A DNA stretch of 64,000 bases from Psammoneis japonica (Eukaryota). The position numbers were made by a program, and so were the translations under genes. Location: positions 265,771 to 329,770 of the forward strand of contig QPGO01000066.1 of NCBI GenBank assembly GCA_008632985.1, in the 5' to 3' direction. How positions within the stretch are numbered: the stretch's first letter is position 1; every line of letters begins with the position of its first letter. The notes beneath the pieces were generated by a model. It saw only the letters and a program-made list of their open reading frames with translations, ran no database searches and was not told the DNA's origin. Shown in pieces: positions 395 through 41,975 of the stretch.

Positions 395-535
395 GACGCG
401 TTCCAGGTCTAGGTGGGACCTCGCACTGCTGAACTGTGACATCGACAGTTTTTTGAATCACGTCGTATGTCGCGCACGTAGATTTCTACGTGATTTTTTC
501 GACATTTTGTGTCATTTTACGGTGCACTTGTTGAG
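395..535 (-). repeat. 141-bp inverted duplicate of the right end of the adjacent MITE (784-924)
   Basis: 395-535 is the reverse complement of 784-924 with one mismatch (C503 versus T, i.e. A816). Confidence 0.9.
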
Positions 536-924
536 ACGCGTTCCAGCCCTGGGTGGGACTCCGTGTGACATTGGGCCCGTAGAATTCTACGTGCGAGCTC
601 CGTAGTACGAGAATTTAATTGGTGGACATGTTTGTCTTCAACATCAAATAAACTGCCAAGTTTGTGGTACAATTATGCCTCTTGCCACTCGACGTTTTTG
701 CAAATGCGCCTGCCCTACGCGATTCTTAAGACATTATAGAATCGCGCTGTAACAAAAAATGTCAAAAGTTGTTGGACGGATCGCTCAACAAGTGCACCGT
801 AAAATGACACAAAATATCGAAAAAATCACGTAGAAATCTACGTGCGCGACATACGACGTGATTCAAAAAACTGTCGATGTCACAGTTCAGCAGTGCGAGG
901 TCCCACCTAGACCTGGAACGCGTC
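535..924. mobile_element. Young non-autonomous TIR element (MITE), GAC-terminal family, still TpA-containing
   Basis: TIRs GACGCGTTCCAGCCCTGGGTGGGAC (535) and GTCCCACCTAGACCTGGAACGCGTC (to 924). Termini are homologous to those of 4562-4957 and 17798-18179. Flanks TTGA/TGGA do not match, consistent with a rearranged junction. Confidence 0.8.
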
Positions 925-1545
925 TGGAGGCGTTTGTTGTGTCGCTGGGTTGGCAACAGCGACATGGAGACAAACAATTGCTGTCATAAAAACACCTTCT
1001 GCTCTCAATCCTTTTGATCAAACCTCGCCAACAGGAGCAGAACAAACAATTTCTTGGTGAGCATTGACAGCAGGACAGCTGCAATGACCAAACGAACGTT
1101 CATGAGATGCGCGACGTTGGCGCAACATGACAAAGAACATCAATGTTTTGCGACTTGCCCACGGTGCTGAAACCCTGGTTTTCTTCCATGCTGGCACCAT
1201 GCATCATCTGCCGGGATTGTGCGCTTCTTTTCGTTGGCTTTTTCTTCCATTTGGGTGGGCACGGAGGCGTTTGGGGCATCACTGCTGATTGGTGACGGCG
1301 ACATTGAGGTGCAATTGTTGTTGTCACAAAACACTTTCTGCTGGCGATCCTTTTCGCCAAATGTCAGCAACAGGAGTGGAACAAACAATCCATTGAAAAG
1401 GATCGCCAGCAGAACAGCTGCAACAAGGTTGGCACACAACAGACTGAAATGGGTTTCATCACGGCGATTGACACAAGAAGGGTTGCGCTCAACTCGAAAA
1501 AGTTGCTCAAGTGGATGGACGTACAGACTTGCGGGGGGTCTCCGT
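925..1545 (-). mobile_element. Truncated inverted copy of the TTAA-flanked element at 36217-37734
   Basis: The reverse complement aligns with about 36217-36801, including the terminus CGG(A/G)GACCCC..AAGTCTGTACG. The flank reads TTGA where the other copy has TTAA. Confidence 0.75.
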
Positions 1546-2394
1546 CAACTGGTTGCTGGGATTGACTGCAATCAACCTCAATGCAAACTCGACTGCAATG
1601 ACCTGATTGTCGGGAAAGAGCCGAGGTCACAATCACAATCAAGGAAGCAAAGTTGTTGGGCACAGACGAATTTTAAGATCTTCCAAGTGCTGCTCTGCTG
1701 ATCTTTGCCCCATCATTTTCCTTGGCAGTTGGCAGGAATGTCGACCCCAGTTCGGGAGTTGAAAGCAGCGCAACTTTGAGCCAACAGGTGCAGCGCAACA
1801 TTTTGTTGGCAACATCATTTGGTTTTTTGACAAGGCGGTGCAGCGGCACACAAGGCACCGCTCCGCCAGCATCATTTGAGGTTGTGTGTGTGCTGTTTGA
1901 GAAGGCAAGGAGCCATTGCAAAAGACCACTGCCAGAAAGAATCATTGGCTTGTTCACAGGATGAGAATTTTGTTTGCAGTTGTGGGCATTGTCATCTTCA
2001 TGAAGAAGCAGCTGTTGGAGATGGCATCCTCGGTGTGCACCCAGAGCTCAGCTTGAGACACTTTCCACTGTGACATCCCAAATGCTTTGATTTTCCCAGA
2101 GGTGAAACATGATTTGTGTGCCGGCACTTGTTGATGTCAATGAAAGACAATGTGTCAACCTGCGTTGGTCGTCACACACCAGCAAGAATCTTTTTCAGAC
2201 AAATGAGCAAAACAAAAGATCAGGAACACTCTGTGCAGATCCATGCAGCGCAAAAGTTGCTGATGCACTCCAGCTCTGGGTGGGACCTCGCACTGCTGGG
2301 ACACACAGCATTTTGTCGCCAATTGCGACGTTCCCTTGAATGAGTTGGACGATTTGTCATGAAAAAAGCCCTTTGAGACAAATTGCAATGTGCA

Positions 2395-2830
2395 GCCACT
2401 GACAAGAGTTGATGCATCATGGCAACGTGTTGCAGCCTTTAAATGTCACAAAGGGTGTGACAAAAATGACCTTTTGTCTGCATGCATGCTGCATTGTGAA
2501 TTCACAGCAGAGTGGTTCGTCGCAACCATTGGGCAGGAGGCCAGGGGTTCGAAACCCTGAGTGGGAGTTGTCTGCAGCAACGTTGATCACTGTCGAATGC
2601 ATGAAACTCTGTGCAGTTCTGTGTGTTCCTTCATGCGTGCCCACACTGTTCCGCCAAAACCATGCAGTGTCAGTGCATGTCAGCAAAGAGCCGCATGGAC
2701 GCGTGACACATGGGGAGGAGTGCAACACACTGCCACTGACAAGAGTTGATGCATCACGGCGACGTGTCACAGCCTTTAAATGTCACAAAGGGCGTGACAA
2801 AAATGACCTTTTGTCTGCATGCATGCTGCA
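2395..2830 (+). repeat. Pair of 99-bp direct repeats (2395-2493, 2732-2830)
   Basis: Both read GCCACTGACAAGAGTTGATGCATCA...GCATGCATGCTGCA. They differ at TG/CA and CG/TG sites. Confidence 0.85.
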
Positions 2831-2974
2831 AAATTTCAATCGTTGGCAATGAACAAGACAAAATCATCGCTCAATTGGTGGCGGCGTGTCCCATGCACAA
2901 ACGTTGTGTCAACTGCAGTGCCACATGATGAACTTAACTTTCAGCAAAGACTGCACTTTCTGATTGATGTTTTG

Positions 2975-3467
2975 TGGCGATTTTGCACGACAAATTTTGT
3001 CGGACATGACAAATTTTGTCAGACGTGCGACAAATTTTGTCAGACGCACGACAAATTTTGTCGCATCCGACAAACCCCGACAACATGCGACAAATGCTGA
3101 CAAACGCCGACAAGAGCCGACAAATGCTGACAAATGCCGACAGATGGACGTTTGTGACATGCCGACAACGCTCCCCAACATTCAGAAGTGCCCAGTTGCA
3201 TGGACGTGCTGTCTCCACCAGATTCGCCTGCCGTTCGCAAGAGAGCTGCCCACTGACAAAAGGTGCAGCACAGCAACACACACTGGCACATTCCGTTCCA
3301 CCACGCAGAAGCATGTGATGTTGTCCCGGTGCGGTGTGCGGCGTGCGGGGGGGCGTGGTTGTTTCGTTCGTGAGTGGTTGTGTTGTGACGTGTCACGTCG
3401 AGTCATGTCATGTGCCGACAAATTTTGTCGGATGTCCGACAAATTTTGTCGTGTGAATTTTCGTCGA
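2975..3467. mobile_element. MITE-like element with palindromic subterminal repeats
   Basis: GACAAATTTTGTC occurs four times at the left end (about 21-bp spacing) and twice at the right end, followed on the left by about 10-bp GACAAAYGCY repeats. Ends are inverted-similar; TSD unresolved. Confidence 0.65.
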
Positions 3468-3658
3468 TGACATCGATCGCCAAGTTCTGTCAATTGCCCC
3501 ACTCATTGAAACGACATCGCCAAAGTGCAGGTTGTTGGTTGTAAATGACATTGATCATTTTGTCGCTTGGTTGAACAATGTTTCTGTCCCGTTTTTTGCC
3601 AACCCAGACATTTTGTTGCAATTCACATCTTTTTGCAACAAATCATCAACTCGTTCAA

Positions 3659-4187
3659 CACGGGATCCGCGGATGCACCAGGGGAATCTGTGAAATGCGG
3701 GATGAAAGGGGAAAGGGGCAAATGTGAATGGTGGAAAAGTGACATGCCATTGTTTTACCTTGAGGGACCCTTCAGTCAGCCAAACTCGCTCATTGCCAAT
3801 TTGACCCTCGCAGGTCCGCCTTTTCGGGGTCATTGAATTGTGAGAGCAGATGCGGTCTCGAGAAATGATTTCATGTGTTTTGTTGGACCATTGACATTGT
3901 GCAAATCTGAAAATGACACACATGAAAAAAGTGAATTTTCAATTTTATATGACCTTCACAGCCACATGTGTTGTGTGACAATCAATCCTCAAGACGCGTC
4001 CCGTCTCACAACATTTTGACACCCCCCATGAGACGGACCTGTGATGATGGTCAGATGAGATGTGTGCATGTTCGGCTCACCAAAGGGACCCTCAAGGCAC
4101 AATGACAGCCCCTCACTTTCCCACCATTCCCATTTGCCCCTTTCCCCTTTCATCCCGCAATTCCCGGGTGCACCCGTGGATCCCGCG
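3659..4187. mobile_element. TTAA-flanked non-autonomous element with long (>100 bp) TIRs, piggyBac-like
   Basis: Left end CACGGGATCCGCGGATGCACC...GGGATGAAAGGGGAAAGGGGCAAATG is matched in reverse complement at the right end. Flanks are TCAA (3655-3658) and TTAA (4188-4191). Confidence 0.75.
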
Positions 4188-4561
4188 TTAAGAAAATGTC
4201 GCCAAATGCAACAAAATGCCGTGCGTCCCTGAGCTGTGACACAATCATTTTTTGTCATCCGTTGCATGTTTCTCACGCACATTTCTCCATGTTCTGTCAT
4301 AAAAAATTGCTCCACACTGCCTGTTTTGCAAAGCCAAGGGCTTTCTGTTGTCTGCATTCATGACAACAAAAATGTGCTGGGTGTGTTCTTTGATGTCTGA
4401 AGAATGTGCCCGGGCATGCTGCAAAGAATGCACTTCAAGTGTGGAGGAGGAGACACGTTCGCAAAATTGCCTCTTTTTCTGTTGGCGATCATTCATGTGT
4501 CCATTGCTTGACAATTTTGCTGCGGAGCTCGCACGCAGAATTCTGCGGGCCAAATGTCACA

Positions 4562-4957
4562 GACGCGTTCCAGCTCTAGGTGGGACCTCGCACCACTGGA
4601 CTGTGACACAATTGTTTTTTGTCATCCGTCGCACGTTTTGCACGCACATTTCTACGTGTTCTGTTGCAAAATGTTGTTCCACACTGCCTCTTTTGCGAAG
4701 CCAAAGGCTTTCTGTTTTCTGCGTTTGTGACAATAAAAATGCGCCGGGTGTGTTCTTTGATGTCTAAAGAATGTGCCCGGGCAAACTGCAAATGACGCAC
4801 TTCAAATTTGGAGGAGGAGATGCGTTCGTAAAATTGCCTCTGTTTCTGTCAGCGATCATTCACATTTTCATTGCTTGGCAATTTTACCACGGAGCTCGCA
4901 CATGGAATTCTGTGTGCCCAATGTCACAAAAAGTCCCACCTGGGATTGGAGCCCGTC
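4562..4957 (-). mobile_element. GAC-terminal MITE inserted into a related element
   Basis: GACGCGTTCCAG...TGGAGCCCGTC with TSD CACA (4558-4561, 4958-4961). The body is similar to the host segment at about 4230-4560. Confidence 0.85.
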
Positions 4958-7900
4958 CACAAAAAGTCCCACCTGGAACTGGAGCCCGTCTGCTGCTGTC
5001 ACAGCAGGTCTGCACAATCCCTTTGTTGGGCTTTCTTGCTCATGGGAAGTTTTGTTGGTTTGTTGAGTGACAAAACACATTGCTCAAAGAGGAAGGATGC
5101 AACAAGTCATTCTTGGTCAAAACAACTTTTAACTCAGACATCACGACAGGAATTTGTTTGAGAAAGGGCAGAGCAGTTGCTTGACAAAGAAGATTCTGCA
5201 ACAGGTTGCTCTCACGTCAAAATGACTTTAAGCTCAGACATCACAACAAGCATTCACTTTTAAAGGGCAACATTGTCCCAAGTTCGTGGAGCTGCATTGG
5301 CCCCACAAAGCTTTCATGGGACAACTGATGCAAGAGATTTTTGCTCGGGAGATTGGGGCACTTTCTCCACAGCTCCCCCAAAACAACCAACATGATGCCA
5401 TTGCAACCAGTCAGCTCTCACTTTGTCCAATGGTTCAGTGTCGACAATTGGTTGTTCATTGGACAGTCACCAAAACTAATTTCACATCGGCACACCTCCA
5501 TCAGGGTTGCCACACATCGTTCTCCATTGCTCACACACCACATCTGCTGTCGACTCATCACATGCATGACATTGCTGTCCACAATGGGAACAACCTTAAA
5601 AACCATTTTCCAGAATTGCTCAGTCGTCAACATCAGAATCAACAGCACCCAAAGTGGTGTGATGCATTTGGCAATTTTGCAAATGCCCAAACACCCCAAT
5701 GACTCAAATGACCAAAGTGACATCAAATTGCAACCGTAAAAAAAGTTGAAAATCCCCCAAATGACAACCTGCCTGGAAAACAAGATCATGAAGGCATGCT
5801 TTTCTCTTCACCAAATGAGCCGCCATGAACCATTTGCAATGAACTGGGAGCATCATAAAAAACTTGCATTGCTTTTTTTTGCAATGGTTGAAAAACCCCA
5901 TTTTTCATTTGGGGTCAGGCACTCATGAACCTGCCATTCCGGTGCAGCCAAAATCAGTGAAACGGCTCAATTTCTTTGCCTGTTTGTCAGACTGCGCAAT
6001 TGCTGTGCAATTGTGCAATCAACCAATTGCTGCTCTGCAGAGATGCAATCAACAACTGATTGCAATCTGATTGCCGCAGAAAACTTTGCAACTGGTTGAC
6101 ACTCAAAAAATTTGTTTGACATTTGAACAAGGAGGCTGTTGCAGTGATTTGCTGTTGAGTGCAAAAAAAACTGAGATTTTTCAGCACCCGCACCAGATCA
6201 TGCATGCATGCATGCACATCATGCAGTGCAATCAAAGCACAACAAATTGACATCTCAAGAACGCAGTCTGCTGTCATCATGCACTCACCTGATGCTGATC
6301 ACACAACAAATGGCAAGCCCAACACAAGTGAGCTTGTGATGCAACATGGCCTCCTGAGCAATCTCAGCTGAGGCAAAACAAAAAAAGTGAGACCATCAGA
6401 GAGGTGGCCAAAAAAGGTGAGCTGGTCACAGGGCATTGTTTGGCACTTTGACCTGGTGAGCGCACTCTTGGATTTGTTGCGCCAGCCCATGCTCGCTTGT
6501 TTTCATTTGACCTTTTTTCATTTGCACTTGACATTTTTGTTTGGCCTGCATGTGGTCATTGCCCCACCATGGCCAAAATGTGTGTTTTGTTTTTTCACAT
6601 TCCAACCCAAACGCAACAATGGTCACAACAGTCCGGCACCATTTCACTCAAATCTGTGAAGTTGCACTCAATTGTCATCACAGACATTTTCATCCAGCAT
6701 TTTTTCAAAAATGTCAATGAAAATGTTTTTGATTCTCAGGGGTGCAATTTTGAATCTGTGCCACTTTTTTCAAGTCAAGAGAAAACACCAAAGGGGGGGA
6801 GGGGCAGCTTCTTGCAATGGCGTGCAACAAAGCAGCATGGACACAGCAAGTGCAGGCAAACATGTGACACAAAAAACAATGAGCAAACATTGCAACTGTG
6901 GTGCAGAGACAGAGCAGTCTGAGCAAGCAGATGGTCAATGGCCAAAAGGCTGGCAAAGACACATCATCAAGGTGAGAGATTGTGTCAAAAGAGAAGTTTG
7001 TCTGAGCATTGCCCTCACACTTGGTGCAAAACAATTGGACAAAACAGGCACGCTGCACAAAAACAAGTTTTGCCGCAAGTTTCATTGGGGAATTGACATT
7101 GAGCAAGATGCATGGCTGACACCAGTGGTGCAACAAGAAAAGGAACAACTCTCAGCTCTGACAGACATTTCAAAAATGAGCTTGAGAGCATTGCCAACAA
7201 GGGGCTCATGGAAAAGGAGACAATGCAAAGAAGAGAAGGTGTGCAAGGTGACTCAAGTGCATTGCACCCCATCACAAAGAAGAAAAGGTGTGCAACGTGA
7301 CTCAAGCACATTGTGCCAAGCAAGCAACTCGAGCCCAGCAAAAGAAGGCATGAAAGATGATGCAGGATGCCAAGGAAGAGCAAGGGATGGTCACCAAGAG
7401 CTGACTTGGCTGATGGGAAGATTGGTGTGGAACACTTTCAGCCAGCCACAGAAAGCAAAGACCGCTTCACAAACTGGGATCTGGTCATCTGCCAGCGGGA
7501 GGGCCCTTGATGACATTTCCCTGGTGTGCTCATGCCTTGTTGAGGTGTGCAGGGTTTGCAGCATCAACAAGCTGTGGGGGCAGCACAGCTCTGGCTTTTT
7601 CTTCATTGGGCACTCAAGAAAAAGTGGGCACAAGCCATGCAGTGCTTCTTTTTTGGCGGCAATCCTCTCCCTCCTTTTGTTTAGATTGAGGTGCAGTGCT
7701 GTTCTTGGGGGGGGGGGGGGGCATTTGTTGCTTTTTTTGTCTGCAGCTGGTCAGCTCCTCTTGCACAATCCTTCTGCAGTGATGACCCGGTCAGGACTCC
7801 CCAAAGCGATGCTTGCCTGTGGGCTCTTGTTCTTGCACTTTTGGTCAATGACCCAAGCATTGTCGTTGCATCTCTGTGAAAACTTGCACTGCCAAGAGGG

Positions 7901-9333
7901 GCCTTGTCAAGCTTTTTTCAAGAATGAGATGAAGCTGTTGTGGGGAAAGAACACAATCACGCAAGGAGCTCAGCTTTGTGTCAAGAACAAATTGCCTGCA
8001 CAAGAGAGCAAACTGCAAAGAAGAACTGTCTTTCTTGCTGCTCATTTTTCAATTTGGCATTGCATGATCTGCCTGTCCCATCTGACCTCACTGGCACCTT
8101 TTTTGCTCTTGTTTTCATCTCTGGAGCACTGGCTTGATTTTTGGTGGTTGTTCAAGAGGGGGGTTGGATCTCACAACTGGTGCCTTGCCCCACACAAAGT
8201 TTGCAGCTGTGTTTCTCTGGACACGAACCAAGATTGCATGCCCATTCCACCACCAGTGCTGCAACACCAGGAGGCTGGGTTTCCACCTTCTCATCAAACA
8301 CTGGCCCAGCCTGTTCTTTGAGATCCCAGCCACACCAGCACCACGCATGGAGCTCACAAGAAGGGCACCCCACTTCTCGACACATCTGGAGCAACACATG
8401 TCTCCCACTGCTGCTGCTGGCCATTGCTTGCAGAGGCAAGCATTCTCTGGGGACTGTTTTTAACACATGTTTTTTTTCAATGTCTTGGCCACTTTGTTGC
8501 TGGCATGGATCCCAACTCAGCACATTTGTTGTTGCTCTGCTGCCACCTCATTTTGCTGGCATCAAGGATGATGATGGCAACTTTCTTGTTGAAGGCCACA
8601 GCAAGCCACAGCATTGTGCTTTGGATCCACAGGGACAATGTGGGGTTCCCAGTCTATTTTGTCATTCCTTCTCATCATGATGTTGGATCACTGGTGTGCA
8701 CATGGTGCTGATTGTGTTCAATCCCAGTGTGTGCTGCCCACGACACATGACCACACACCATCCTTTCAACTCATTGACTCTGGTGTTTTGACTGCCAGGC
8801 TGGATCTTCCTCCAACTGCAACCGCACCTCATGGTGTCACCAAAGGGAAGCACCCAACAATGCTTTGCCACCCATGGTCATGTGTCTCCATGCTGCACGT
8901 GCAACCAGCACAAGAAGCTTCTTCTTCTTCTTCTTGAAGAGGCCTGCCACACACAGCTGTTGTCAAGGACTGCAGCCAAAACACTGAGAAAAGTGAATGA
9001 AATGGTTGATGTCATCATCAAATCCATGGTCCATTTGGCTGTCAAAAGCAATGATGTGTGGAGTGGCCAGACAAGCAACAGTGGACATGCTCGCTGTTTT
9101 CTGTGCATTTCTTCTGCTGCCTGCTGGGCTGGCTCCCCCCTCCTGGCTCTGCCTTGAGTTGGCGGTGGTGTGGTCTGGTGACAATGTGGCCTCCTCCACA
9201 CTCTCATGCTTGCATCCATCTCAGCGTCGTCATCAATTTTCCATCATCATTCTGTTGTTGGTCAAAGGCATTCGGGCTGTAGACTGCATGCAAGCAACAT
9301 TTTTTGTTGTCCAGTTTTTTGTCACACACCAGC

Positions 9334-9911
9334 ATTCAAAAAATTTGAGCCAGTTTCCGCTTGCCACCAGCTGAGCGAGAAGCACGCATGCCGTGGTGCT
9401 GATGCATGTAGAGCGTTGAGTTTCGAATGCTTGGGACAGTTCTTTTCTTTTGTTCTGCACCCCACTGCACCGCCAATGGCCATGGCGTTGATCCCTGTCA
9501 TTCATTGGCAGCCCCTCTTCCAACACATCTGTTGCTTCCACCCAACTTTCCCGCCACCATCCAACATGTCCACCTCTGATCCTTCTTGTGATCATCTCAC
9601 AGCGGAGTTAGCTGCTGCTTGCCACTTGCTCCACTTCCCAAATTTCTTCCATTGAATTGAAAAAAAAACCGTTCGATCGGGCCACAAATTCGGCTTGTGG
9701 CAGCTCTTCCAGAAAGTTGTTGCAAGCCTGTCTTCGCAGTTTAGTCTCTGCATTGTCCATTGTCTGTAGAGCATTCATGGTGCTTTGCTGTCGCTCTGAT
9801 TGTGCAACTGTGCTCCTGTGAGAAGTGGTGGTCTGCTGTCAGTTGCGACACTGCTCTCTAGCTAGAAGATGCCTCACGACTCACTCCTTCCGTGTGTGTG
9901 ATGTGTTGCTG
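9334..9911 (+). pseudogene. Decayed, internally deleted duplicate of locus about 18592-21328 (5' of HA gene joined to 5' of HNH-like gene)
   Basis: 9334-9618 aligns to about 18592-18890. 9619-9907 aligns to about 21034-21328. Confidence 0.9.
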
Positions 9912-9912
9912 C

Positions 9913-12900
9913 TTGTGGCAGCACAGGGGGAGGGACAGATGCATCCACCTCCCACCGCACGCAGCCTTGAACGAACCTGAATGCCAGTGGCATTCTTTGC
10001 AACTCGTCACCGCCTGTCGAGGCCGCAGCAGTGGTTGTAACTTTTTGAAGAAGGGAGCGACACACACCAACCTTTCTCCCTTCATGGCTGCTGTCCCTCC
10101 TGTGGCAGCCGGTGGAGCACCTCCGGCTGACGTGTTCCAGTCCCAGGTGACGCACAAAACGACAATCGGATTTCGAACACAACTCATGTGTGTTTTGCTG
10201 TGTGAAGCATTTTAACAAAAATGCTCAGACGGATTGACTTTTGTGGGCTTCTGGAGCATGCACATTTAAACAGTTTTTTTGAGGGGAATTCAAATCCTCA
10301 TGGGATGTGTGTCACAAACTTCCTCAGCAGACTCAATGCTGATTGCACGTCAGCAGATTTACACTGAGATTTTCTTGCAGGTGGAAAACCCACCAAGTGG
10401 CATCGTAGAAAGACACGCTCAGGTGACATCCAAATGACGGCAACATTTTCGCCGAAAATCATCCGTTTTGTCACGAGTCTTTCAACGCAATGAAAAACAC
10501 AGATGGCACAATGACAATGACATTGCAACACTCACACGAGTCTTGTCAGTGTTGCAAAACATTCACATTTGTGTGAATCTACACTTTTGGTGGTGAAAGT
10601 TTGATCGCAAGTTGGGGACCGCGCAAAAATCGCGCAAATGTCGTTTTTGTGCACGATTTGGTTCACGTGCGGCTGGAACACGTCGGCTCCCCCAAAAACA
10701 TGCCACGACAAGTGGACAAGTCAAGGAGATCACTTGGGTGGGGAGCATGCGAATTTAATCCGTCGGTGCGACACCACCATCGCTGCTCCCGAGCCGGCCA
10801 CCACGCCACTCGAGCACATCATCGACTCGAGCGACGTGGCACCCAAGGCCTTTTTGGCGCTGGTGTGGCAAGGCACAGGTTGTCGCATCACCTGCATCCA
10901 CCGGCCCTCTGTGTGCATCAGAGACCCGGTGGAGACCTTGCCATGGGATGGACGCATGTTTTGTTTTCACGGAGATGTCCTGCCGGGTAATTTTGTTGCC
11001 ATTCACAAGATGCCCAACACTTCGTTCGACATTGTGGGGCCTCAAATGGTGCCTGCTGTGGCCAACATGGCCGCCCTCGAAGGCACCTTGGTGGATGACA
11101 ACGACTTGACACCTCCGCAGACCGATGGCGCCCCGGACACTGACACAATCTACGTCCGCCGTCTCGCACAAGTGCCCCACGCCTGCCTGCATCCAGCGCT
11201 GACCCGGGATCTCACCCCACTGCAAGCCTGGTGGGAACCAGCAGGAGCAATCCAAAATGACGGTCGCGCAGGGGACTTGAGTCCTCTCATCGACTGGTTG
11301 CGCGCGGCCCTCACCACCAACACTGCGGTGAATCCAGATCCAGTCCATTGTCCAGGTGACCGCACCACCGCCTTGCCGCCACTTGCGGTGGAAGCCAGAT
11401 TGCAAGAGCATCGTTGGCATGCATTGTTGCAAGACCTGCCCGCCTTGGATTCAACAGCCGTGGACAACACCGACCGCATGCCAGCCTTCGCTGACATGGT
11501 CCGAGCCGATGCAGTGTGCACGGAAGCAACATGCTCTGCAGCCACAGCCGCAGCCGCAGTGCCTAAAACTCTGGTGGAAGCCTTCCCACAGACCACACCC
11601 GTGTGGCTCTTGCTGTTGAGCGCACCAGACGATGCAGCCTTGCCCACGCTGCTCCACGCTTGGGCCAATCTCGTGTTGCACCTGCAGTTTCGAAGGAGCT
11701 GCACGAGATGGCATTGCAAGGGAAGGTTGCACCTCACGTGCACCAAGTGAACAACCCAACCGCCGGTGTGTCACCTTTCACCTGTGGCTTCTTCCTTGCT
11801 GGACAAGGTTCTGCCGTGCAAGTCTGGGCCGAACGCTGCGACCTTGCGTTGGCAGGCAACCTGACACCTGCTGTTGCAGAACAAGAGGAATTCCGCACCA
11901 AGGGTGCACAGCTGCCGACATCCACTTGCCATTGTGGAAGCATGCTCCAAGCCACCAGCTTGGTCTTGGATGTCATCCAAGGCTCAGACCACCCCCATGC
12001 TGTGGCTTTCCGGCAGTTTTGCTTGGAAGACTGGCGGGACATGGTCGACTTGCTCGAGCAATCCAGAGCCCTGCTGGCAGAAGGAAACGTCCTTCCCCGC
12101 ATTTGCCGCGAGGTGCAGATGCTCGTGGGGGTCTGCCTTTGCAGGCTCATGCAAGGCGGGGTGCCCCGGGTGCCCGACTGCACCGCAGTGGCGCACAAGG
12201 TGCCACATGGGCAATTCTCCCTGCTGGCACAGTTGCCCCATCATTTGCTTGGCCAGCCAGACAGGGCGATCAATCCCCAGATGAGCTCAACCAGCGCCCC
12301 CAACAGTGGGACCACCTCTGCACCAGCTGCTGCCGCTGGGCGTCGCGACCCCGGTGCGGCCGTCACACTCAAACAGCACCAACGCTCGAACTCCCCTGTG
12401 TGCCGTGCGCCTCGGCAGGCGTTGGGGTCATGTCGCCAGCCGCGCCATCACCAAAATGCTCCCAAGTGTTGGCCGCCGCCTTGCCACATCTGGGATTCCT
12501 GCCCAAGGACGTCACTGCACGCAGCCTCCGAGCCGGTGGTGCCGTGGCACTTTTGTGCACCAAAGTAGACACCGACATCATCCGTCTTGTCGGATCTCAA
12601 CGAAAATCCTGAACCACGGCAACTTCACGTTACTCCCGGGTTCCGACATCCCCCCCGTTGCACAAAATGTCATCAATCAAGCCCAACCCCTTGTCACTTG
12701 TCGGCACTCCAAGAGTGTCAGATCGGAGGCGGTCTCTGTTGCTGGTGAGCCAAAAGAGGGCAAGAAACCCCAGCAAAGCGCTGACACCACCAACTGCCGC
12801 CTCCCAACTGCAGTGGGACGCACCCCCCAGCTGCGTTGGTGGCAAACAGCCATTGTGGCAGCACAGGGGGAAGGACAGACACACCCACCTCCCACCGCAC

Positions 12901-13146
12901 GCAGCCTTGAACGAACCTGAATGCCGGTGGCATTCTTTGCAACTCGTCGCCGCCTGTCAAGGCCGCAGCAGCAGTTGCAACTTTTTGACCCTCCACTCCC
13001 ACCCAGTGCCACCTCATCGGACGCGGTCTCTGTTGCTGGTGAGCCAAAAGAGGGCAAGAAACCCCAGCAAAGTGCTGACACCACCAACTGCTGCCTCCCA
13101 ACTACAGTGGGACGCACCCCCCAGCAGCGTTGGTGGCGAACAGCCA
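9913..13146 (+). mobile_element. Ngaro-type (DIRS order) tyrosine-recombinase retrotransposon, internally deleted
   Basis: Split direct repeats A1 9913-10048, B1 12722-12852, A2 12853-12988, B2 13016-13146. YR C-terminal motif LGFLPKDVTARSLRAGGAVALLCTKVDTDIIRLVG lies at about 12490-12595. A frameshifted gag-like ORF1 remnant lies at about 10740-12360. No RT/RNaseH was recognised. Confidence 0.85.
10129..10684 (+). mobile_element. GAC-terminal MITE (556-bp subfamily) inserted in the Ngaro element
   Basis: GACGTGTTCCAG...CTGGAACACGTC with TSD GGCT (10125-10128, 10685-10688). An inverted homolog is at 41264-41821 and a partial one at about 16330-16550. Confidence 0.9.
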
Positions 13147-13339
13147 CGGCAAGATGATGCAGTGTCGTCATTGACGGCCAGACCGAATTTGTGTTTTTGA
13201 ACCATTTTTTGAATTTCTCCTCATTGGAATTTGGAGCCTGCCCCAGAAGTGGCTGATGTCACCACTTTGCAGCAAAATTTTCAGGGATTCCATTGTGCAT
13301 GCTTTTTCCTCGGCTTGATTTGTCTGATTGTCTGTTTGC

Positions 13340-15005
13340 TGTTGCCACGGCAAAGCCAATGTTGTTCAAGGAGAGCACTGGAGAGGCAAAGTCACTGTTG
13401 TCAGTTGTTTCGGTTGGGCACCACCTCAGGATGGCACCAACACAGGCTGGTTGTTGGGCCCTCCTGTTGCACATCATTGTGCACTGTGCACCAGGAGTGT
13501 GGGTCAGCTTGTTGTCAGAGTTGCCAGGCAGAAGCGCAACAGCACTTAAAACACAGAATTTTGTTCTTTCTTGCCTGAGCACCAGTTTCAACAGTGCAAA
13601 TCATTGACCACTCGGTGGTCTGGTCAGGCAAAAGTTTCATTTGTCCCCTCCGTCCTGTCTGTCCTGTCTGTGTCCCCTGAAGACATGCAGACGGCCCTCT
13701 GAAGACTGCATGAGTGCAGCGTGATGTGACAATGCATGTGCACGCCGATCGATCAAGCACCAAGTCAGAGTTGTCCTTTTGCCACGTTTGAGGTGCAAAG
13801 TTTGGGACAACGTTCGTGGTGCAGTGACATGTGCACCTGGCAGTGGTTTGCCCCATCCCAGCCACCAACAATTCCAGACCTGCAGGTGCACTCCCCACAC
13901 ACCCAAACACGGACACAACAGCCAATCACACACATCACTGGGGTTCCAAATTCCCCTTTCCCTGCTCAAATTCCATGTGGCACGCAGCTGCACCATCTCA
14001 TTGTCCACCTGTCTGCTTCTTCCCGGGAATTGTGCAGCCAAGCAAACAGGGAGGCACCTTCCCTCCAGGCTCATCATTGTCATGAATTGGATGAGCTTCA
14101 TTTTCTTTTTTGGTGAGCACTTGCAACCAATTGACCTGCCTGTCATGTTGTTGAAACTTGTCTCTATTCTTCAGATCAGTGATGCACACTGTCATGAAAG
14201 CACAGCTGGCATGTTGGGCTTCTTTGCTGCTCTTTCCATTGCTTTTTGCCTTTTCTCTCTGTGGAATGATTTGGAGGATCATTTTGCACCTTAAAAAACT
14301 CTGGTTGCAGAGTTCTGCCATCGTCTTCATTCACAAACCAGCCAAAACAATGTGGCTTGTCTTCTCCTGCATTGCAAGAGTCTTCAGGACAAAACTTGCA
14401 TGGCGCTTGGACCAACTTGATGGCATGATGTGCTCCAATTGAACAACACCTGATTGGTCCATTGCATCATTGTAAAATTGTTTCTCTGTGAAACAGGCTT
14501 CCTGACAATCTTGTTCCTGCATGGAAGGCTTCTTCTTCTGAGGCCTGCTGAGTGAACCTCCCACATCCATCTTGCCCATCATTGTCTGCAGCAATGCAAT
14601 GTTTCTCTCCTCTCCATCTTTGGCCTGATCATGACACCTCTTTGCCACTGTCATGCATTGCAGCTTGTTCCAGGAAATGTTTGGCAAAGGACAAAGCCCA
14701 ACTTGTGGATTCTGTTGACAAGCACCTCAGTCATTCTGCCCATTGTCTTTGCAATTGGCTGGCCATGGTCAAGCCAATGTTCAAATCAAGCATCAAAGAA
14801 GCCAAATGCCTGGCTGTTTGTGGCACCAGATCCATCGCAAGCTGCTTCGGCTCGGCATCACCCATGGGTGATGCCAGCTCTGGCCAACTGTTGTTTGCTC
14901 CTGCTGCATGATTGGTGCGCTGGGGGTGTGGGTCAGCTTGTTGCTGGAGTTGCAGGGTGGAAGCACAGCAGCACTTAAAACACAGATTTTTGGTTTTGTC
15001 ATGCA
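13340..15005. repeat. Two decayed paralogous segments (about 13340-13575 and 14760-15005)
   Basis: Shared blocks AAGCCAATGTT and GTGTGGGTCAGCTTGTTG...CAGCACTTAAAACACAGA. Origin not recognised. Confidence 0.6.
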
Positions 15006-16329
15006 TTGCAGCTGCCTGGCACATTGTCAAACTTGACACTCATGTGAAGTTCTGGAACAACTTTGTGCCATTCTGCAACATGCAAAAAAAAGACCAAATC
15101 AAAAAGTTCTTCCTTCTCCACCTCTGCCAAAGAAGAAGACAAAGAGTGATCATGCTGAGCAGCCTGCATGAACCTCTTGTGGATGTTGAAAGCCATGGGG
15201 GTTTGCAACCACAAGTGCTGTCACCATGTGCTTCACACACATGAGGCGACCAATCTCTCAAGACAACATTCCACAGCAGCAAAGTGCCCAGAAGGCTGTT
15301 CATTTGACTCACTTCGGGCCCATGTGTGACTTCCCTTGACCAGCATTTGTTGTCACACTGGGCACAACACATGTCAAAAGTGAAACCATTCTTCTTGGTT
15401 TCACGCAGATCAACAAAGACATCAACATCCACAGAGTCATCGCGCTCCTCTAAATCACCATTGGAGTCAATCCGCTCAGATTCACAACACTTTTGACTGA
15501 GACATTTTTTGGTTCTCTTGGTGCCATCCATTCCAGAGACAAGACTGGGATCAACTCAATGATGTGCATCAAACTCATGTTCTTTTGAGTGAGATGCTTC
15601 CACCCTCCACCATCTCTTCTTCTTGACATTTTGGACAGGTGGGATTTCTCCATCCTTCTTTTTCTGTCCTTCTTGCCACAACAACAAATCTTTGCCAACA
15701 ACAAATTCAATGCAGTGATTTTGCTCAAACTGTGGATGATGGTTTGTGCCACATTGGCTGGCATTGAAAAAGCCAGATCCTGTGAACTCTCCCAAACAAA
15801 CTTCTAGATTTGAGCAAAGCACTTCATTGGCATGACTGGGGGAGAACAACTCAAGTTGTGAATGGGAAACATCAACAGGAAAGGATTGGCACATGTTGTC
15901 CTTTCCTGTTCAAAAGGTGTGATTGCCTGACAAAGCCTTGAGAGATTGCTTGAAAAGAGGGCCATTGTGAAGCACAGGAAATGGGGGAATCGCCATGCTT
16001 GGGTTGACACACAACTCAATGTCTTGAGCACAAAGGTGCTTCATTTGTCGTTCTGCATCAGATGCTTCCAACCCAAGTGTTCCAACACTTTTGAAAGGCC
16101 CAAATCAGCCTCTGCTCTGTCCACAACATCAGGCCTCACATTGCCTTTTTACAACAGGGAACCAAACCCCTTTGGCAGTGAAGCATTGTGCCCCACTTTT
16201 TGTGATGCACTGGCAGAACACCTGCAGGATGACATTTTGCAAGCAAGTGCTTTGTGTTGACGTGCAAACACATTCAAAGTGCGCAAATCTTCACCAACAC
16301 TTTTTGCAAAAATGGCCCACACTGTGATG

Positions 16330-16550
16330 TGGCGTGACTCATTTGTCACAATGAAAAACATTGATGGCACAAAAACAACAACATTGCAGTGCTGATGCAC
16401 AAGTCCAGTTGGCATTGCAAAACATCAATGTTTGGATGAATCTGTGCTTTTGGTGGCAAAAGCTCAGTTGCAACAAGTCAGAGACTGTGCAAAAATCATG
16501 CAAGTGCCATTTTTGTGTGCAGTTTGGTTCACACATGGCTGGAGCATGTC
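16330..16550 (+). mobile_element. Partial decayed copy of the 556-bp GAC-terminal MITE (right end)
   Basis: Aligns to about 10480-10684 and ends GGCTGGAGCATGTC. Confidence 0.7.
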
Positions 16551-17227
16551 AACAGCTGGTGCCCTGCCACATTTTCCATTGGCAAATCTCATCACAAGTT
16601 TCTGAAATGTAAAATCTCCTCCACAGGGGCTCTGAACTCTTTGCTGCCATTTTGCTCTGAACTGCCTCATTGTCTCCTCTTGTCTCAGACAACAATGCTG
16701 CAGCTTCGTTGCTTTCAAGTGGCTAAAGTTTTGCTCCACTGCCTTGCCAATTTGCAACAAGTGTGAGAGCTGTGACACGGCCCCTGCATGCATGACCATC
16801 AAAAGCCCCACGCCCATTTTTTGCCAAAAATTGACTTCTTCTGACAGCAGCCCCAGCGTTTGTTTGTGCTCACATTTGCACATGCAGTTTGCAGCAATGA
16901 CACAAATGTGCCACTGTTCATTCATCAGCAGCACACAGAAAATCCAAACCCCCCAAAATGCAGCCCATCACGGGGGACTTTTTCACCCTTGACATGTCCT
17001 GCCCCCGCACCCCACCACTGCATCATCTTGAGGGGTTGAGCCTCAACTCAAGGGTTTTGTGTTTGCGTTGTGCCATCTCATGGGTTCTCATGCGAGCTCT
17101 GCAGCTCATGCTCTGGTCAATGACACTTTTGTCTTCAACATGGGACAAACAACAAAGTTTGTGGTGCCCATGTCCCTGTTCCCACTCAAGGTTTTGGACT
17201 TTCTGCCTGCCCTGCACCACTCTTGGG

Positions 17228-17425
17228 ACATTTAAGAATGGCACAGAAGAAAAAAAATGTTGAAAGTTGTTGAATGGATCGCCCAACAATTGTGCCATAA
17301 AATGATGCAAAATGTCACCAAAGTCACGTGGAAATGTGTGTGTGCGACATGCAACATGATTCAAAAAACTGCAAATGTCACAGTTCAGCAGTGCAAGATC
17401 CCACCCAGACCTGGAACACCACGTC
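17228..17425 (+). mobile_element. Aged copy of the right half of the MITE at 535-924
   Basis: Aligns to about 725-924. Over 755-924, 5 of 6 TpA are replaced by TG/CA. Confidence 0.8.
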
Positions 17426-17797
17426 GTCAAGGGAAGTCACTTGTTGACTTGCTCCAATTCTGACACTGATCGACGTCACACCATGATGCAATCTCAGAAT
17501 GTGAGACCCTCTTCTTGTGAAAAGGATGATGTCATGAGATCACAATGTCAAAATTTCTCACCTGGCTGGTCTGCATCACATGCATGTCACATGCAAATTT
17601 TTTTGGGTGGTTGTGCTGTCGAGCACTGCATTCATGCGGACTGAGGCCAGGCCGTTCTCCGAAAAATCTGACGTTGCGCAACTCAACTCGCAACATGAAA
17701 ATGCAGTGACTCAAATGCCACACTGTTTCACTGTTCTTCATGCCACACTGTTTTGTTGCTGCTGCTGCCAATTTTCTTGCTGTCGGTTGCCGCAGCC

Positions 17798-18179
17798 GAC
17801 GGGTTCCAGTCCCAGGTGGGACTCCGTGTGACATTGGGCCCGCAGAATTCTGCGTGCGAGCTCCGCAGCAAATTTGTGCTGCAATGAAAATGTGAATGAT
17901 CACCAACAGAAAAAGAGGCAATTTTGCAAATGCATCTCCTCCTCCATGCTTGGAGTGCATCATTGACAGTTTGCCCGGGTGCATTCTTCAGACATTGAAG
18001 AATGTGCCAAGTGCATTTTCATTCTCACAAATGTTGAAAACAGAAAGCCCCTTTGGCTTTGCAAAACAGGGAGCATGAAACAATTTTGGAGAATGCAACA
18101 TGCAGAAATGTGCGTGCATGACACACAACACATGTCACAGTGCAGCAGCACGAGGTCCCACCCAGAGCTGGAGTGCGTC
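17798..18179 (+). mobile_element. GAC-terminal MITE (about 380-bp subfamily)
   Basis: GACGGGTTCCAG...CTGGAGTGCGTC with TSD AGCC (17794-17797, 18180-18183). Confidence 0.85.
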
Positions 18180-18820
18180 AGCCGTCCCTCACTCAACTCT
18201 CATTCTTCCATCATCTTTGGTTTCTTCCGGAGTCACCCCCCCCTGTCTGCAATTCCTGGTCACTGCAAGGAATGCAGCGCACCACCCCACAGCACCCGTT
18301 GCTTTTTGCGCTGCACATGTGACCCTCTCTGCGTGTGAATCATGCCTTTGATGCCTGCTTCTTTAAGACACCTGCACATGGCTGGTCCGCCCCACAGGCT
18401 TCTTTGGCCTCTGCTCCAATTGTCTCCCAGAGTAGATTCATTGTGTAAATCACGCCTTCGATGCCTGCTTCAAGACCTGCACGCAGCTGATCCGTCCCAC
18501 AGGCTTCTTTGGCCTCTAGGTCTACTGCAATTGTCTTGCGCTACATCATTTTGTCGTGTCTATATAGTCTAGGCGTACAGCACAGGCGTCTATTCAAATT
18601 TTGAGTTAGTTTCCGTTCGCCACCAGCCGAGCGAGAAATACATACGTACGCCGTACGTAGAGCGTTGAGTTTCGAACGCTTGGGAGTTCTTTTCCATACA
18701 CTCTATTCTGCACTCTCTGCACCGCCACGGCCCCATGGCGTTGATCCCTGTCATTCATTAGCAGCCCCTCTTCCATCACATCTATTATACTTCCAATCGA
18801 TTTTCCTGCCAACATCCCAT

Positions 18821-19723
18821 ATGTCCACCTCTGATCCTTCTTGTGATCATCTTATGCATGATCCTTCGCCAGCAGAGTTCGCTGCTGCTGCTGCGATGGC
18901 TGATGAGGAAGCAACGGATCGTTTAGCAGCACCAGCTGCTTCTGCGGCTGCTGCTGCCACTCCTACAGAAACACCCGCCGCCTCGTCGTCGTCTCCCAAT
19001 AAGCGCAAGAAGAAGAAATACAACAAGTATCCTCCAGTTACGTTTAACGACATGTTTTTCGAATTGATGGTATTCAGGTCTCAAACGGGTCATACGCGGG
19101 TTCCTTCTTCCCACACCCAACTCCATCGTTGGGTGACGCAAATTCGAAACCAGCGCAAGAATAATATCGTCTTGACCGAAAGACAACTGCAGGTTCTGAA
19201 TTCAATTGATTTCGTATGGGACGTGCCTCGACACGATCGACAAGAAAAGTGGAAGGAACACTACGAACAGTTGGTGGCCTATAACGCTCAACACGGACAC
19301 GTCAATGTGCCCCAGGCGACGCCGCTGGGCAAGTGGGTCAAGACACAACGCGAGAATTATCAACGACACCAAAAGGGATCGGTACGCAAAACAGGAAAAC
19401 CCTTTATTTCGCAAGAGCGTATTGAACTGCTGGAGCGTCTCAACTTTCAGTGGGCCATCAATCCACCCGTCGTCGGGTGGGAAGCACGCTTTGAGGCCTT
19501 GCAACAATACAGAGCCATTCACGGGAATGCCAATGTACCGCAGGGATACAAACCGGATGTTGCATTGGGGCGGTGGTGTATGAAGCAACGATCGCAGTAC
19601 AGCTTGCGTCGTCGTGGGTTGAAGAATCAGCTTACAGAGGATCGGATTATGCGGTTGGAGAATTTGGGATTCTTGTGGTCGGTCAACAAGAAGAACAAGG
19701 AAAACGAACAAACACAAGCGTAA
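18821..19723 (+). CDS. Helicase-associated (HA) domain repeat protein
   Basis: Three repeats of W/F..xxxL..Y...HGH.NVP...LG.WV..QR..Y...L...RI..LE.LGF.W after an Ala-rich low-complexity N-terminus. The ATG at 18821 is chosen as the likely start. Confidence 0.9.
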   Translation: MSTSDPSCDHLMHDPSPAEFAAAAAMADEEATDRLAAPAASAAAAATPTETPAASSSSPNKRKKKKYNKYPPVTFNDMFFELMVFRSQTGHTRVPSSHTQLHRWVTQIRNQRKNNIVLTERQLQVLNSIDFVWDVPRHDRQEKWKEHYEQLVAYNAQHGHVNVPQATPLGKWVKTQRENYQRHQKGSVRKTGKPFISQERIELLERLNFQWAINPPVVGWEARFEALQQYRAIHGNANVPQGYKPDVALGRWCMKQRSQYSLRRRGLKNQLTEDRIMRLENLGFLWSVNKKNKENEQTQA

Positions 19724-19982
19724 CTCATGATGGATGTTTCTACGGTAAGGGGTTCTAATTCATAGGCAATGCCGCAGTATTATTCAGTATTAGGGGTAGA
19801 GAGTAGGGGTTCTAATTGATTATAGAAGATAAGGCAGACATCGTTGGTTAGATCCATCCTTGCTTATCTAACGACGTTATCGACGTAAGAAATTGGTCGA
19901 ACAATGTGTATTGTGCAAAAGGCCGTCGTCTTTTTGTACCGACAAAAACCAAACTTGATCGTCGTCAATGTTTGCCACAATC

Positions 19983-21194
19983 TCACATCACAGATTGTAC
20001 CGGTCGCAAAAGCGATGATAGGTCCAAGTTTTGCGCACGTTGAGGCCGCTGACTATCATCCTCATCGTCATCATCCTGTGTTGAGTTAATTGGCTCGTCT
20101 TCATCGCTCAAACCATGTTCTGGGCAAGCAGGCATTACTTGCGCGCCGACGATGGAAGAGAAGCTGATGGCTGCCTTGACTGCCATGTTGAAAGGATCCG
20201 GCATGCTATTCTCTCTAGACGCTCTGGCACGGGCAACTTTGACTTTGTCCCACTCTAGATCGCTTTTCACCTTTGGAATTTGGATCGATGCTTCATTGCT
20301 TTCTAAGCCTTCCCTCTTGAGTTTCCACCATTTCTTCAAATCCGTCATCGGCACTGCATGAAAATCCAACTGTTCGGGTGTGAAAGACTCCCCAACAGAA
20401 TGATTTCGTACAGAACACGCTATCCCTTTGTAGAAAACCCGCAAGAGCTCGGTGGCCTTCTCAACGTCGTCTTGAGTGCATGTTGAAGGGGAGGCTTTGA
20501 GTATTTTTTCGCTACAGCTTTGTCCACTACCACCCCCAATGGTGATCGCCATGACGTCGTACTGGTCTGTTCCATTCCAATCCAATACATCGTCAATTTC
20601 ATAGATAGGAATTAAGACGAGTACAGGCTGGCGGTCATAGTAATCTCCTTGCCGCTCCAGATACAATTTGTTGAGTTTATGATGCTTCAATCCGGTTCCT
20701 GGTGAACGTTTTGAATTCCTAGTTTTCTTCACACCGTTCAACAGCTTTAGTCGTTCCTCGGGGGAATTAGCTTGTATCCCTGTGGCGGCTTGGGCAAGAT
20801 AGCCATAGGACTTGTGGTACACAGGTGCATTCGAAAAAAGATGAGCCTTTTCGGCTGTATCGTTCTGGAACATATCAAAGCGTGCTGGGCTTTGTTGGAC
20901 TGTGTTGGTCAAACTTGAACTTTCAGATTGACTCATGAGATACGACAAGCTTACCGACGTGATCTGGGCATATAAACCATTGCCCTGCACTTCCGTTCGG
21001 CAAATGGCACGGAAAAAGCTGTCGTCGTCAGTGATTGCCACTTGCTCCACTTCCCAAATTTCTTGCATTGAATTGAAAAAAAAACCGTTCGATCGGGCCA
21101 CAAATTCGGCTTGTGGCAGCTCCTCCAGAAAGTTGTTGCGAGCCTGTCTTCGTCGTTTAGTCTCTGCATTGTCCGTTGTCTGTAGAGCGTTCAT
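19983..21194 (-). CDS. Hypothetical 403-aa protein with HNH-like motifs
   Basis: Intact ORF with normal Tyr content. AEKAHL...NKLYL...YYD resembles the AHI...N.L.L...FD pattern of HNH_2/Crinkler-type nucleases (tentative). Confidence 0.7.
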   Translation of the reverse strand: MNALQTTDNAETKRRRQARNNFLEELPQAEFVARSNGFFFNSMQEIWEVEQVAITDDDSFFRAICRTEVQGNGLYAQITSVSLSYLMSQSESSSLTNTVQQSPARFDMFQNDTAEKAHLFSNAPVYHKSYGYLAQAATGIQANSPEERLKLLNGVKKTRNSKRSPGTGLKHHKLNKLYLERQGDYYDRQPVLVLIPIYEIDDVLDWNGTDQYDVMAITIGGGSGQSCSEKILKASPSTCTQDDVEKATELLRVFYKGIACSVRNHSVGESFTPEQLDFHAVPMTDLKKWWKLKREGLESNEASIQIPKVKSDLEWDKVKVARARASRENSMPDPFNMAVKAAISFSSIVGAQVMPACPEHGLSDEDEPINSTQDDDDEDDSQRPQRAQNLDLSSLLRPVQSVM

Positions 21195-21328
21195 GGTGCT
21201 TCACTGTCGCTCTGATTGTGTAATTGTGCTCCAACGAGAAGTGGTGGTCTGCTGTCTGTTGCGACGCTACCGTACTATAGAGAGTAGAAGATACTCACGA
21301 CTCCCTTCCGTACCGTATGTGATGTGTT

Positions 21329-22311
21329 TAGGCCCTGGCCCAATGCGCACTCCCACACCCCAAAATGCGCACCTTTTTTTGGCACTTTGCGCAGTACGTA
21401 CAATTCTACGTGTCCCTGGTACTGGACGACGGCAAGACACACGACAATCCAATTGACAAAGGAGGCATCAAAAAGCACAGAGTTCAACCGCCCTGCATTC
21501 ATCGCAAATTTCAAAGAGGAGCTGAAGGTGTACAAGGAGAAGACTGACAAAATAGAAGATGGCCATTGGACTGCTCTTGAAGGATCAGATGAGTGTGACA
21601 CCATGCTTGCATTGAAAAAGCAGGAAGAAGCTGGGAGGAGCGTGATCCAACGAACCTTGAAGGACACATGGACCGACCGGCTTGGAAAGAAGATGATGCA
21701 GAGGTTGCAAGGAGGGTTTAGGAATGGTGACATGTTCACCATGTGATGCATTTAGCCATGTCTGAAGCTGCACGTCTGGTGGTCCTCATGCAACTTTCCA
21801 GTGCTCCCGTCGAGCCAGTTTTTTCTCAGCTCAAGTGCATTGTTGAGACAGCTCAGCAAAACACGTTGCATGATGCCATTTTGTTGCATCTCTTTTCTCG
21901 TTTGCACAAGGGACATGATGTCAATCAAGACTGTCAGCGGCACTGCAAGAAAAGCCCAGAGTCGAGAGAGCTCTTTCTCTCAGCGCTCGAGTGCACTTGC
22001 ACGGTGCAATTTGCTTTGTTGTGACATCGTTTTTTCTCCTTGGCACAAGAAGGGATGTGATTTGGTGGCAACACAGTGTAGCAGCAACGTGATTAACATG
22101 ATGTAGCAGCAATGTGATGTGCCAGCAATGTGATGCAGTGGCAATGTAAAATGTGCGCAATCGAGAAGTGGCTTGACCGGTGATGAAGCACGGTTGCACT
22201 GAACCTGGCACTGCACCACGTGCATTCTACGCAGTGCGCACTCTGCGCAAATTGTGCATTCTGCTCACAGAAAATCCCCAGTTTGCGCAGTGCACATTGG
22301 GCCTGAGCCCA
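21329..22311 (+). mobile_element. Defective hAT transposon
   Basis: Imperfect 23-bp TIRs (TAGGCCCTGGCCCAATGCGCACT versus TGGGCTCAGGCCCAATGTGCACT, 19/23). Perfect 8-bp TSD GATGTGTT (21321-21328, 22312-22319). The remnant ARLVVLMQLSSAPVEPVFSQLK matches the hAT C-terminal dimerisation motif SSA..ER.FS. Confidence 0.92.
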
Positions 22312-22879
22312 GATGTGTTGCTGTCCCCACTCCCAGCACGAACCATGCTGTGGTTTGCCGCGCGAAATCACGAATGCGCGCGATTCCTGCCCCGGACCAT
22401 CAAGTGGTTTGCGGCAAGCCAAAAACGAACCGACAGACGATGGGCAAAAGTGTAAAAGACAATGAGACATCTACAATGACATTGCATCAGTCGACACAGC
22501 AACGTCTGTTTGACAATCTGTGTGCTTTGTTTTGGTGGTTTACTGTGCTCTTAAACGTCTCCGTACTTTCACTGTCTTGTTCATCGTGAGCATCATTTTT
22601 CTGATTCAATTTTGCATTCGACCCTCAGGCGCAAATTACACGCATGTTTCTAAGAGAGTCTGCTGGGTTTCTTCCTCAATTGAGGCAGCAAAATTGTCCT
22701 CAATTGAGGTGGGCAAAATGCGCCCGCAGACAGAAAACAACACACTGCTTTAGCAAACAACACGAGAGACAACAATGTTCTGTTGCGCAAAAACCAACCA
22801 GAGTGCTCGACTGAGAGTGCATCAGACACAAGAGGAAGCAGAGTCAGCAAGTGACAGAGGGCAGTCAACACATCAATTG

Positions 22880-41821: not shown

Positions 41822-41975
41822 TGAAAGATGTGTTTTAGTCCCAAAAGGTCAATGCCAGCATCCACTTTTGCACGGCCCTGAAAAAGGAAAAACGGCTAAA
41901 ATGCGACAGCATTTTTTGCGAATGTGTGCAATTTTTGGAAAAACCTTCAAATGGCTTGAGCGCGAATGCTGAATT

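Follow-up and report, generated by a model that had tools for sequence, protein, structure and literature searches.

Surviving TpA steps in erased repeat DNA of Psammoneis japonica are best explained as the slowest targets of an A:T to G:C mutator whose rate is graded by sequence context

In a 64,000-nucleotide stretch of Psammoneis japonica DNA (hereafter the window; positions 265771-329770 of contig QPGO01000066.1, within a 91-Mb eukaryotic assembly), whole tracts have lost most of their TpA (TA) steps, and the few that remain lie mostly beside a further A or T. Why do these steps survive? Two-state segmentation of the window separated gene islands with 35–41 TA/kb from erased tracts with 1.7–4.1 TA/kb, in which TG and CA were raised alongside the loss of TA, as seen in the dinucleotide table. 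The tract considered here (910..18426) contains 61 TA in 17.5 kb (3.5/kb), and the interval 2430..17425 within it contains 57 (3.8/kb), compared with about 40/kb in unerased segments. The best explanation obtained is an A:T to G:C mutator that acts on repeat DNA after its insertion and works at graded rates depending on sequence; the survivors would be its slowest sites.

An earlier note, made from the letters of the stretch, had claimed that surviving TA are concentrated in TAA, TTA and TTAA contexts. This was clearly the case: 41 of the 57 survivors in the interval lie in TAA or TTA, compared with 428/1182 TA in unerased DNA. TTAA accounts for 16 of them (T at positions 2440, 2777, 2935, 4189, 5130, 5229, 5261, 5597, 8461, 10213, 10267, 10756, 13547, 14292, 14976 and 17233), compared with 34/1177 in unerased window DNA (Fisher p 8e-11), and for 32/115 survivors over all erased tracts of the window (Fisher p 2e-18). 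Since TTAA is already scarce in the gene islands of the window (5.2% of TA in a wider unerased set), the apparent enrichment is inflated. The excess survived correction for composition, with 16 TTAA seen in the tract versus 6.0 under a first-order Markov expectation from within it (p 2e-4), and survival of NTAN tetramers thus depends on the flanking bases. All 15 sites listed at the time carry TA in the context given for them, two coordinates being off by one (T is at 2935, not 2934, and at 14976, not 14975). The six hexamers said to make up most of the residual TA are real and cover only 17 of the 57 survivors. A sharper contrast is that of YTAR with RTAY, 28 versus 1 among the 57 survivors, which is reversed in unerased DNA (149 versus 401 of 1177). 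The rarest survivor classes over all erased tracts were ATAC/GTAT (0/115), ATAT (1/115) and ATAG/CTAT (3/115). Contigs assembled from short reads (run X1, possibly from the same sample as the window) differed from single-copy erased stretches at 0–1 positions per 0.7–1.8 kb. As they reproduce the erased sequence, base-calling errors do not account for the missing TA.

Four pairs of related sequences in the window illustrate the process, the source keeping its TA and the copy inside a tract losing most or all of them. The copy at 9340..9597 (+) retains 1 TA versus 13 in its still TA-rich source (18596-18852). The partly erased copy at 9616..9907 (+) retains 4 versus 11 in 21032-21328, and all four are of the TAG type. 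In the second erased tract (21555..26806, 3.8 TA/kb), a copy of gene DNA from 35636-35938 lies at 22880-23190 (0 versus 6), and in the fourth (36240..42490, 3.5 TA/kb) a copy of 46670-46925 lies at 39530-39787 (0 versus 7). The window also contains a young 390-bp miniature inverted-repeat transposable element (MITE) with terminal inverted repeats (535..924, +; family F1), which has 19 of about 30 TA left, and an aged MITE-related copy (17122..17417, +). When the latter was aligned to 625-919 of the young copy, 1 of 14 TA was kept, 10 had become TG or CA and 3 were misaligned or otherwise changed. The lone survivor, at 17298, indeed lies in TAAAA as had been noted; the ancestral number is 14, or 5 across the inverted arm, and not the six given then.

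Survivors alone cannot tell which strand is affected, because TTAA fits protection by a 3' A and protection by a 5' T equally well. Each TA step presents two target adenines: a TG product means that the strand shown was mutated, a CA product that the other one was. One mutation destroys the target on both strands. Non-coding repeat copies were therefore drawn from the whole assembly, giving 229 copies, 220 ancestral TA sites and 6287 site-copy cells. The families were the F1 MITE (87 copies), a 4.5-kb element with inverted ends (F2a-c), the MITEs F4 and F5, and two small unclassified repeat pieces (F6, F7); F3, with 2 copies, was left out. F1 elements have GAC...GTC ends and, in most copies, a 4-bp target duplication; their end motif has 240 matches in the assembly, and the copies span 30 down to 2 TA, which makes them a natural dose series. 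A TA was taken as ancestral when present in >=60% of the least-mutated copies, with the F2a ancestor taken from one copy. Copies below 83% identity or 150 bp were removed, so that the oldest ones were lost, and 535-924 was the single window copy in the training set. A looser rule for ancestral sites (284 sites) was discarded because the two strands of TTAA, a palindrome, came out at 46 versus 217, which is impossible. Rates relative to A were estimated with a competing-risk model in which each copy had a single dose, with bootstrapping over sites. Because copies share descent and cells are not independent, only site-level statistics were trusted.

The strand-resolved data bore out the proposal that an A on the 3' side of the target adenine disfavours mutation. 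At VTAA/TTAB sites the adenine of the TAA strand was the more mutated one at 14 sites and that of the partner strand at 64, the two being equal at a further 8 (p 9e-9); all 8 element pieces share this sign. When sites with a pyrimidine at +1 on one strand and a purine on the other were compared, the pyrimidine strand was ahead at 95 and the purine strand at 14 (p 6e-16; 67 versus 11 without F5-F7). At CTAA/TTAG sites both strands were mutated to a similar extent (6 versus 8 sites). Of all single terms, the +1 base contributes most (likelihood gain 236, against 60 for position -2), with rates of 4.07 for T (2.75-6.41), 3.22 for C (2.25-4.53), 1.59 for G (1.12-2.27) and 1 for A; the interval for G included 1 in a smaller set of 169 sites without F2a and most of F2b. 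At +2 the rates versus A were 2.13 for C, 1.72 for T and 1.23 for G. The 5' side also slows mutation, through T at -2 (0.56, 0.36-0.86; C 0.80, G 0.83), T at -3 (0.38, 0.25-0.54) and a CpG at -3/-2. The rule is graded and its hot class is T-A-Y-Y. The motif T-A-B suggested before overstates G, which is only 1.6 times A. In TTAA each of the two adenines is followed by A at +1 and preceded by T at -2, which explains why this tetramer survives; its per-strand rate is about six-fold under that of ATAT. It is slow on both strands and not immune, since 91 of 490 TTAA cells were mutated.

Could the flank rule be a matter of DNA physics, with stiff, well-stacked A- or T-tract surroundings (YTTAAR) being reached less often by an agent attacking TpA? 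A-tracts resist opening, and every penalised base (T at -2 or -3, A at +1 or +2) lengthens a T- or A-tract. Among survivors, TTTAAA is enriched 7.4-fold and YTTAAR 7.2-fold, while RTTAAY is enriched only 1.3-fold. Such a reading is unlikely in view of the strand asymmetry at single sites (CTAC/GTAG, 31 versus 2 sites) and of the CpG term, which is no A-tract feature; a targeted agent would still be required to explain why T is strictly needed at -1 and why the process is limited to repeats. DNA-shape effects could form part of the flank rule, and the motif is likely of enzymatic origin.

A CpG at -3/-2 multiplied the rate by 0.23 (0.15-0.42). At CGTA strand-sites, the CpG-bearing strand took 74 of 338 mutations (0.22), versus shares of 0.37-0.49 at AGTA, GGTA and TGTA, and its share was at or under 0.35 in 7/7 pieces with such sites. 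The effect recurred in unrelated families, at 0.14 for F1/F5 and 0.30 for the remaining ones, and persisted with a covariate for local CpG density. A CpG at +1/+2 likewise lowered the rate. The CpG term accounts for the CGTAAA survivors listed in the earlier note. Since T at -3 slows mutation and C there, when not part of a CpG, has no effect (0.89, 0.56-1.35), a 5-methyl group at -3 is suggested as the hindrance. Decay of this CG to CA went with a higher strand share, 9/24 versus 15/94, a weak effect (p 0.04), whereas after decay to TG the share was still low (2/23). The assembly has 27 matches to C5 DNA methyltransferases (L217-L224), some of them with internal stops, and CG methylation of diatom transposons depends on DNMT5 according to the available text of PMC9998398. 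A braking effect of methylated CpG on the mutator is plausible from the decay of CG, these methyltransferase matches and the diatom DNMT5. More speculatively, T and methylated C at -3 might slow the mutator for one and the same reason, the 5-methyl group present there.

Per opportunity, A>G transitions were concentrated at TA. TA>TG changes were found at 2183 of 11828 opportunities (0.185), compared with 0.0115 for AA>AG, 0.0149 for CA>CG and 0.0094 for GA>GG, a 16-fold preference for T at -1 over AA. CG>CA reached 0.079 and TG>TA 0.0113 per opportunity. Transversions at TA (43/11828) showed no excess over other contexts. Permutations revealed no same-strand excess of neighbouring mutations within a copy at any distance, and copies had no strand skew (p 0.63). 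Neighbouring sites were both mutated slightly more often than expected (279 versus 271, sd 4.4, p 0.035), which shared descent could produce. TA loss outpaces CG loss, as those F1 copies that are down 56% in TA are down 8% in CG, and young copies carry graded TA loss. Dose and flank state were uncorrelated (rho -0.02 in F1, -0.05 in F5) in a set where only 5/113 copies had both flanks unerased; these five had lost 4-18% of their TA. The mutator therefore needs T at -1 and makes clean transitions, one at a time and on either strand. Within the erased domains its lesions are single, independent and cleanly coding, which sets them apart from the patches left by a polymerase, from processive deamination of single strands and from repeat-induced point mutation (RIP). 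The latter, known from ascomycetes, causes dinucleotide-specific transitions confined to repeats, a trait shared with the present process; it turns CpA into TpA and mutates both copies. RIP was rejected, as its polarity is opposite (TA is consumed here, and TG>TA stays at 0.0113) and as the source copies are unmutated in the four window pairs.

These data also bear on an error-prone Y-family polymerase, similar to Pol eta, that would refill patches in repeats and place G opposite T. Five Y-family loci are present in the assembly, including Rev1-like (BRCT) and Pol eta-like genes, and TA falls within the WA hotspot of somatic hypermutation, with A>G at TA common to both processes (PMC6423074, available text). 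The AA>AG changes which the earlier note expected from Pol eta were not above background, AA being no higher than CA or GA. The transversion excess and the strand coordination of Pol eta mutagenesis are missing as well, adjacent mutations lacking a common strand and showing only the slight both-mutated excess given above. Refilling by such a polymerase is accordingly judged improbable; a diverged polymerase with strict TpA specificity would be a possible mutator.

In order to predict survivors outside the training copies, a 12-parameter model without the CpG term was combined with one dose parameter, unerased DNA serving as a stand-in for ancestral composition. Predicted and seen shares in the window were 25.6% and 27.6% for TTAA, 26.3 and 24.1 for CTAA/TTAG, and 0.2 and 0.9 for ATAT (rho 0.99 over 10 tetramer classes). 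Outside the window, 359 kb of erased DNA in which the training families had been masked gave 1282 survivors with the same rank order. In heavily mutated copies, 424 of 437 TA stand at old sites. The remaining 13 are private and new, and 11 of these lie in TAA/TTA contexts, as would be expected if survivors had been created anew, came from target-site duplications or reflected sequencing errors, and were not slow old sites. That possibility is very remote: nearly all TA are old, the copy-derived rates predict the TTAA share unaided, so that no extra source of TTAA is needed, and the short-read contigs match the window sequence.

Taken together, the TpA erasure is proposed to be the work of an activity that deaminates adenine distributively and prefers T-A-Y-Y, with a probability of roughly 0.55. 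In this proposal, a host zinc-dependent deaminase of the TadA/ADAT type would turn adenine into hypoxanthine in silent chromatin, attacking DNA that is duplex or briefly opened, and replication would then fix G. Several observations weigh against it. The mutation data fit damage to A or to its paired T alike; both the lesion and the enzyme are inferred. The copies are related by descent and their cells non-independent, which leaves the site-level tests as the safe ones. In F2a alone, the fitted rates show no +1 effect (C 1.33, G 0.44, T 0.92), although the sign counts of this piece agree with the +1 rule. CpG at -6/-5 and +4/+5 also slows mutation (about 0.5), which a single methyl contact at -3 does not explain, and predicted hairpin loops brought no gain (factor 1.18, 0.85-1.63, in DNA folds of 61 nt). 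The specificities of known enzymes match in part (TadA8.20) or oppose the motif (BjADAT2, fungal Tad2/3).

Among the enzymes compared, the motif appears nearest to that of TadA8.20, which on RNA prefers UA 5- to 10-fold and edits UAU most (PMC12027372, available text). The strong need for U or T at -1 is common to both, and the natural TadA site is U-A-C; on the other side, UAG and UAA are also good substrates of TadA8.20, C at -1 is tolerated by TadA7.10, both enzymes are engineered, and that text reports no effect of T at -3 or of CpG for TadA8.20. The one ADAT known to edit DNA adenines naturally, the kind of activity proposed here, is BjADAT2/3 of amphioxus. According to the accessible part of PMC10354150, BjADAT2 prefers GAA and hairpin loops and also edits C in TCG, whereas in the present data GA does not exceed background, A is the least favourable base at +1 and loops bring no gain. 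Fungal Tad2-Tad3 editing of mRNA shares the preference for U at -1, but its target is RNA and purines are favoured at +1, which in Fusarium is depleted for C and U (PMC9600606, in part). ADAR prefers U at -1 too, but with an RNA target and G or A at +1, the hot spot of ADAR2 being UAG (PMC10661471, in part). ADAR acting on DNA:RNA hybrids, one of the candidates named in the earlier note, is disfavoured, given the low +1 rate of G (1.6, against 4.1 for T and 3.2 for C) and the lack of a per-copy strand skew.

Candidate genes were sought in the assembly, where nine dCMP_cyt_deam matches were found. One (L200) is TadA-like and closer to bacterial TadA than to ADAT2, its product being probably organellar; another (L205) is probably ADAT3-like, and two further matches are deaminase-fold loci (L203, L206). 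Two separate loci (L207, L209) carry an adenosine-deaminase (editase) domain, where one ADAT1 locus would be expected, and no dsRNA-binding domain was detected in their scanned open reading frames (ORFs). Also among the nine matches, a single ORF (L202:313-1785, -) joins a guanine-deaminase-like domain to a 2-oxoglutarate-Fe(II) oxygenase with thymine dioxygenase among its top structure matches. It is of interest since the lesion could lie on the thymine of the other strand (R-R-T*-A), for instance by enzymatic oxidation to a base pairing with G: oxidised thymines such as 5-formyluracil cause T>C, and such a lesion is formally equivalent in all data of this analysis. A thymine lesion is nonetheless quite unlikely. 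Both domains of L202 look like free-base salvage enzymes (guanine deaminase, thymine dioxygenase), and no Tet_JBP match was obtained in the assembly, a weak negative since the search control was also silent. None of the candidate deaminase, editase or polymerase genes is linked to the process.

The closest published case is Bigelowiella natans, in which TpA-only transitions affect integrated DNA of nucleocytoplasmic large DNA viruses and virophages (Mettrop et al., 10.64898/2026.01.13.699255). In its available text, this preprint proposes adenosine deamination by an ADAT2 and describes the process as ongoing, with an about 1000-fold raised rate in mutation-accumulation lines. Both systems show TpA>TpG/CpA transitions only, on both strands and in local domains of foreign or presumably silent DNA. 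The present one belongs to another lineage, its targets are DNA transposons, MITEs and gene fragments, and about 90% of TA are lost. On a word search, the main text of the preprint contains no flank rule and no mention of diatoms (10.64898/2026.01.13.699255). A literature search for a diatom report or a flank rule, thin in subscription journals, yielded only this preprint.

The remaining features of the window are as follows. The gene island 18427..21554, used as unerased control DNA, contains an HA-domain gene (18821-19723); this gene and a nearest Atlas cluster made up chiefly of Bacillariophyta (score 0.79, a lead only) give thin support for a diatom lineage. At the border of the second tract, 26791-27095 is a partial copy of the end of this gene (19484-19802), and TA are retained in both (15 versus 17). 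A third erased tract (29596..33059) has 1.7 TA/kb, and a fifth (62537..64000) has 4.1 TA/kb with CG still high. In the first tract, the ORFs 6711-8321, 10638-11750 and 11708-12568 are long and without Pfam match; they are probably a by-product of vanished TAA and TAG stops. An exact 307-bp tandem duplication at 56866-57478 (100% identical, TA intact) is either a recent event or an assembly artefact, and the gene around it has a TIR_2 match below the cut-off.

In the literature searched, targeted A:T>G:C mutation of a genome is reported only in one preprint, on an unrelated alga. TpA hypermutation itself is thus already published for B. natans, and what the present analysis adds is the strand-resolved table of flank rates. 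It provides a test for enzymes, as any candidate must reproduce T-A-Y-Y, the penalty for T at -3 and that for a 5' CpG, and it weighs against Pol eta, ADAR and a BjADAT2-like specificity. A natural DNA adenine deaminase, if true, would be relevant to the design of base editors, for which such enzymes were engineered. It may tentatively be considered that diatoms possess such a host enzyme, which would be recruited to silent repeat chromatin, edit single bases of duplex or transiently opened DNA at T-A-Y-Y and sense the 5-methyl group at -3, and that it is the same activity as the one acting on viral inserts in B. natans, which would make A>G mutation a genome defence shared among algae of the stramenopile, alveolate and Rhizaria (SAR) group.

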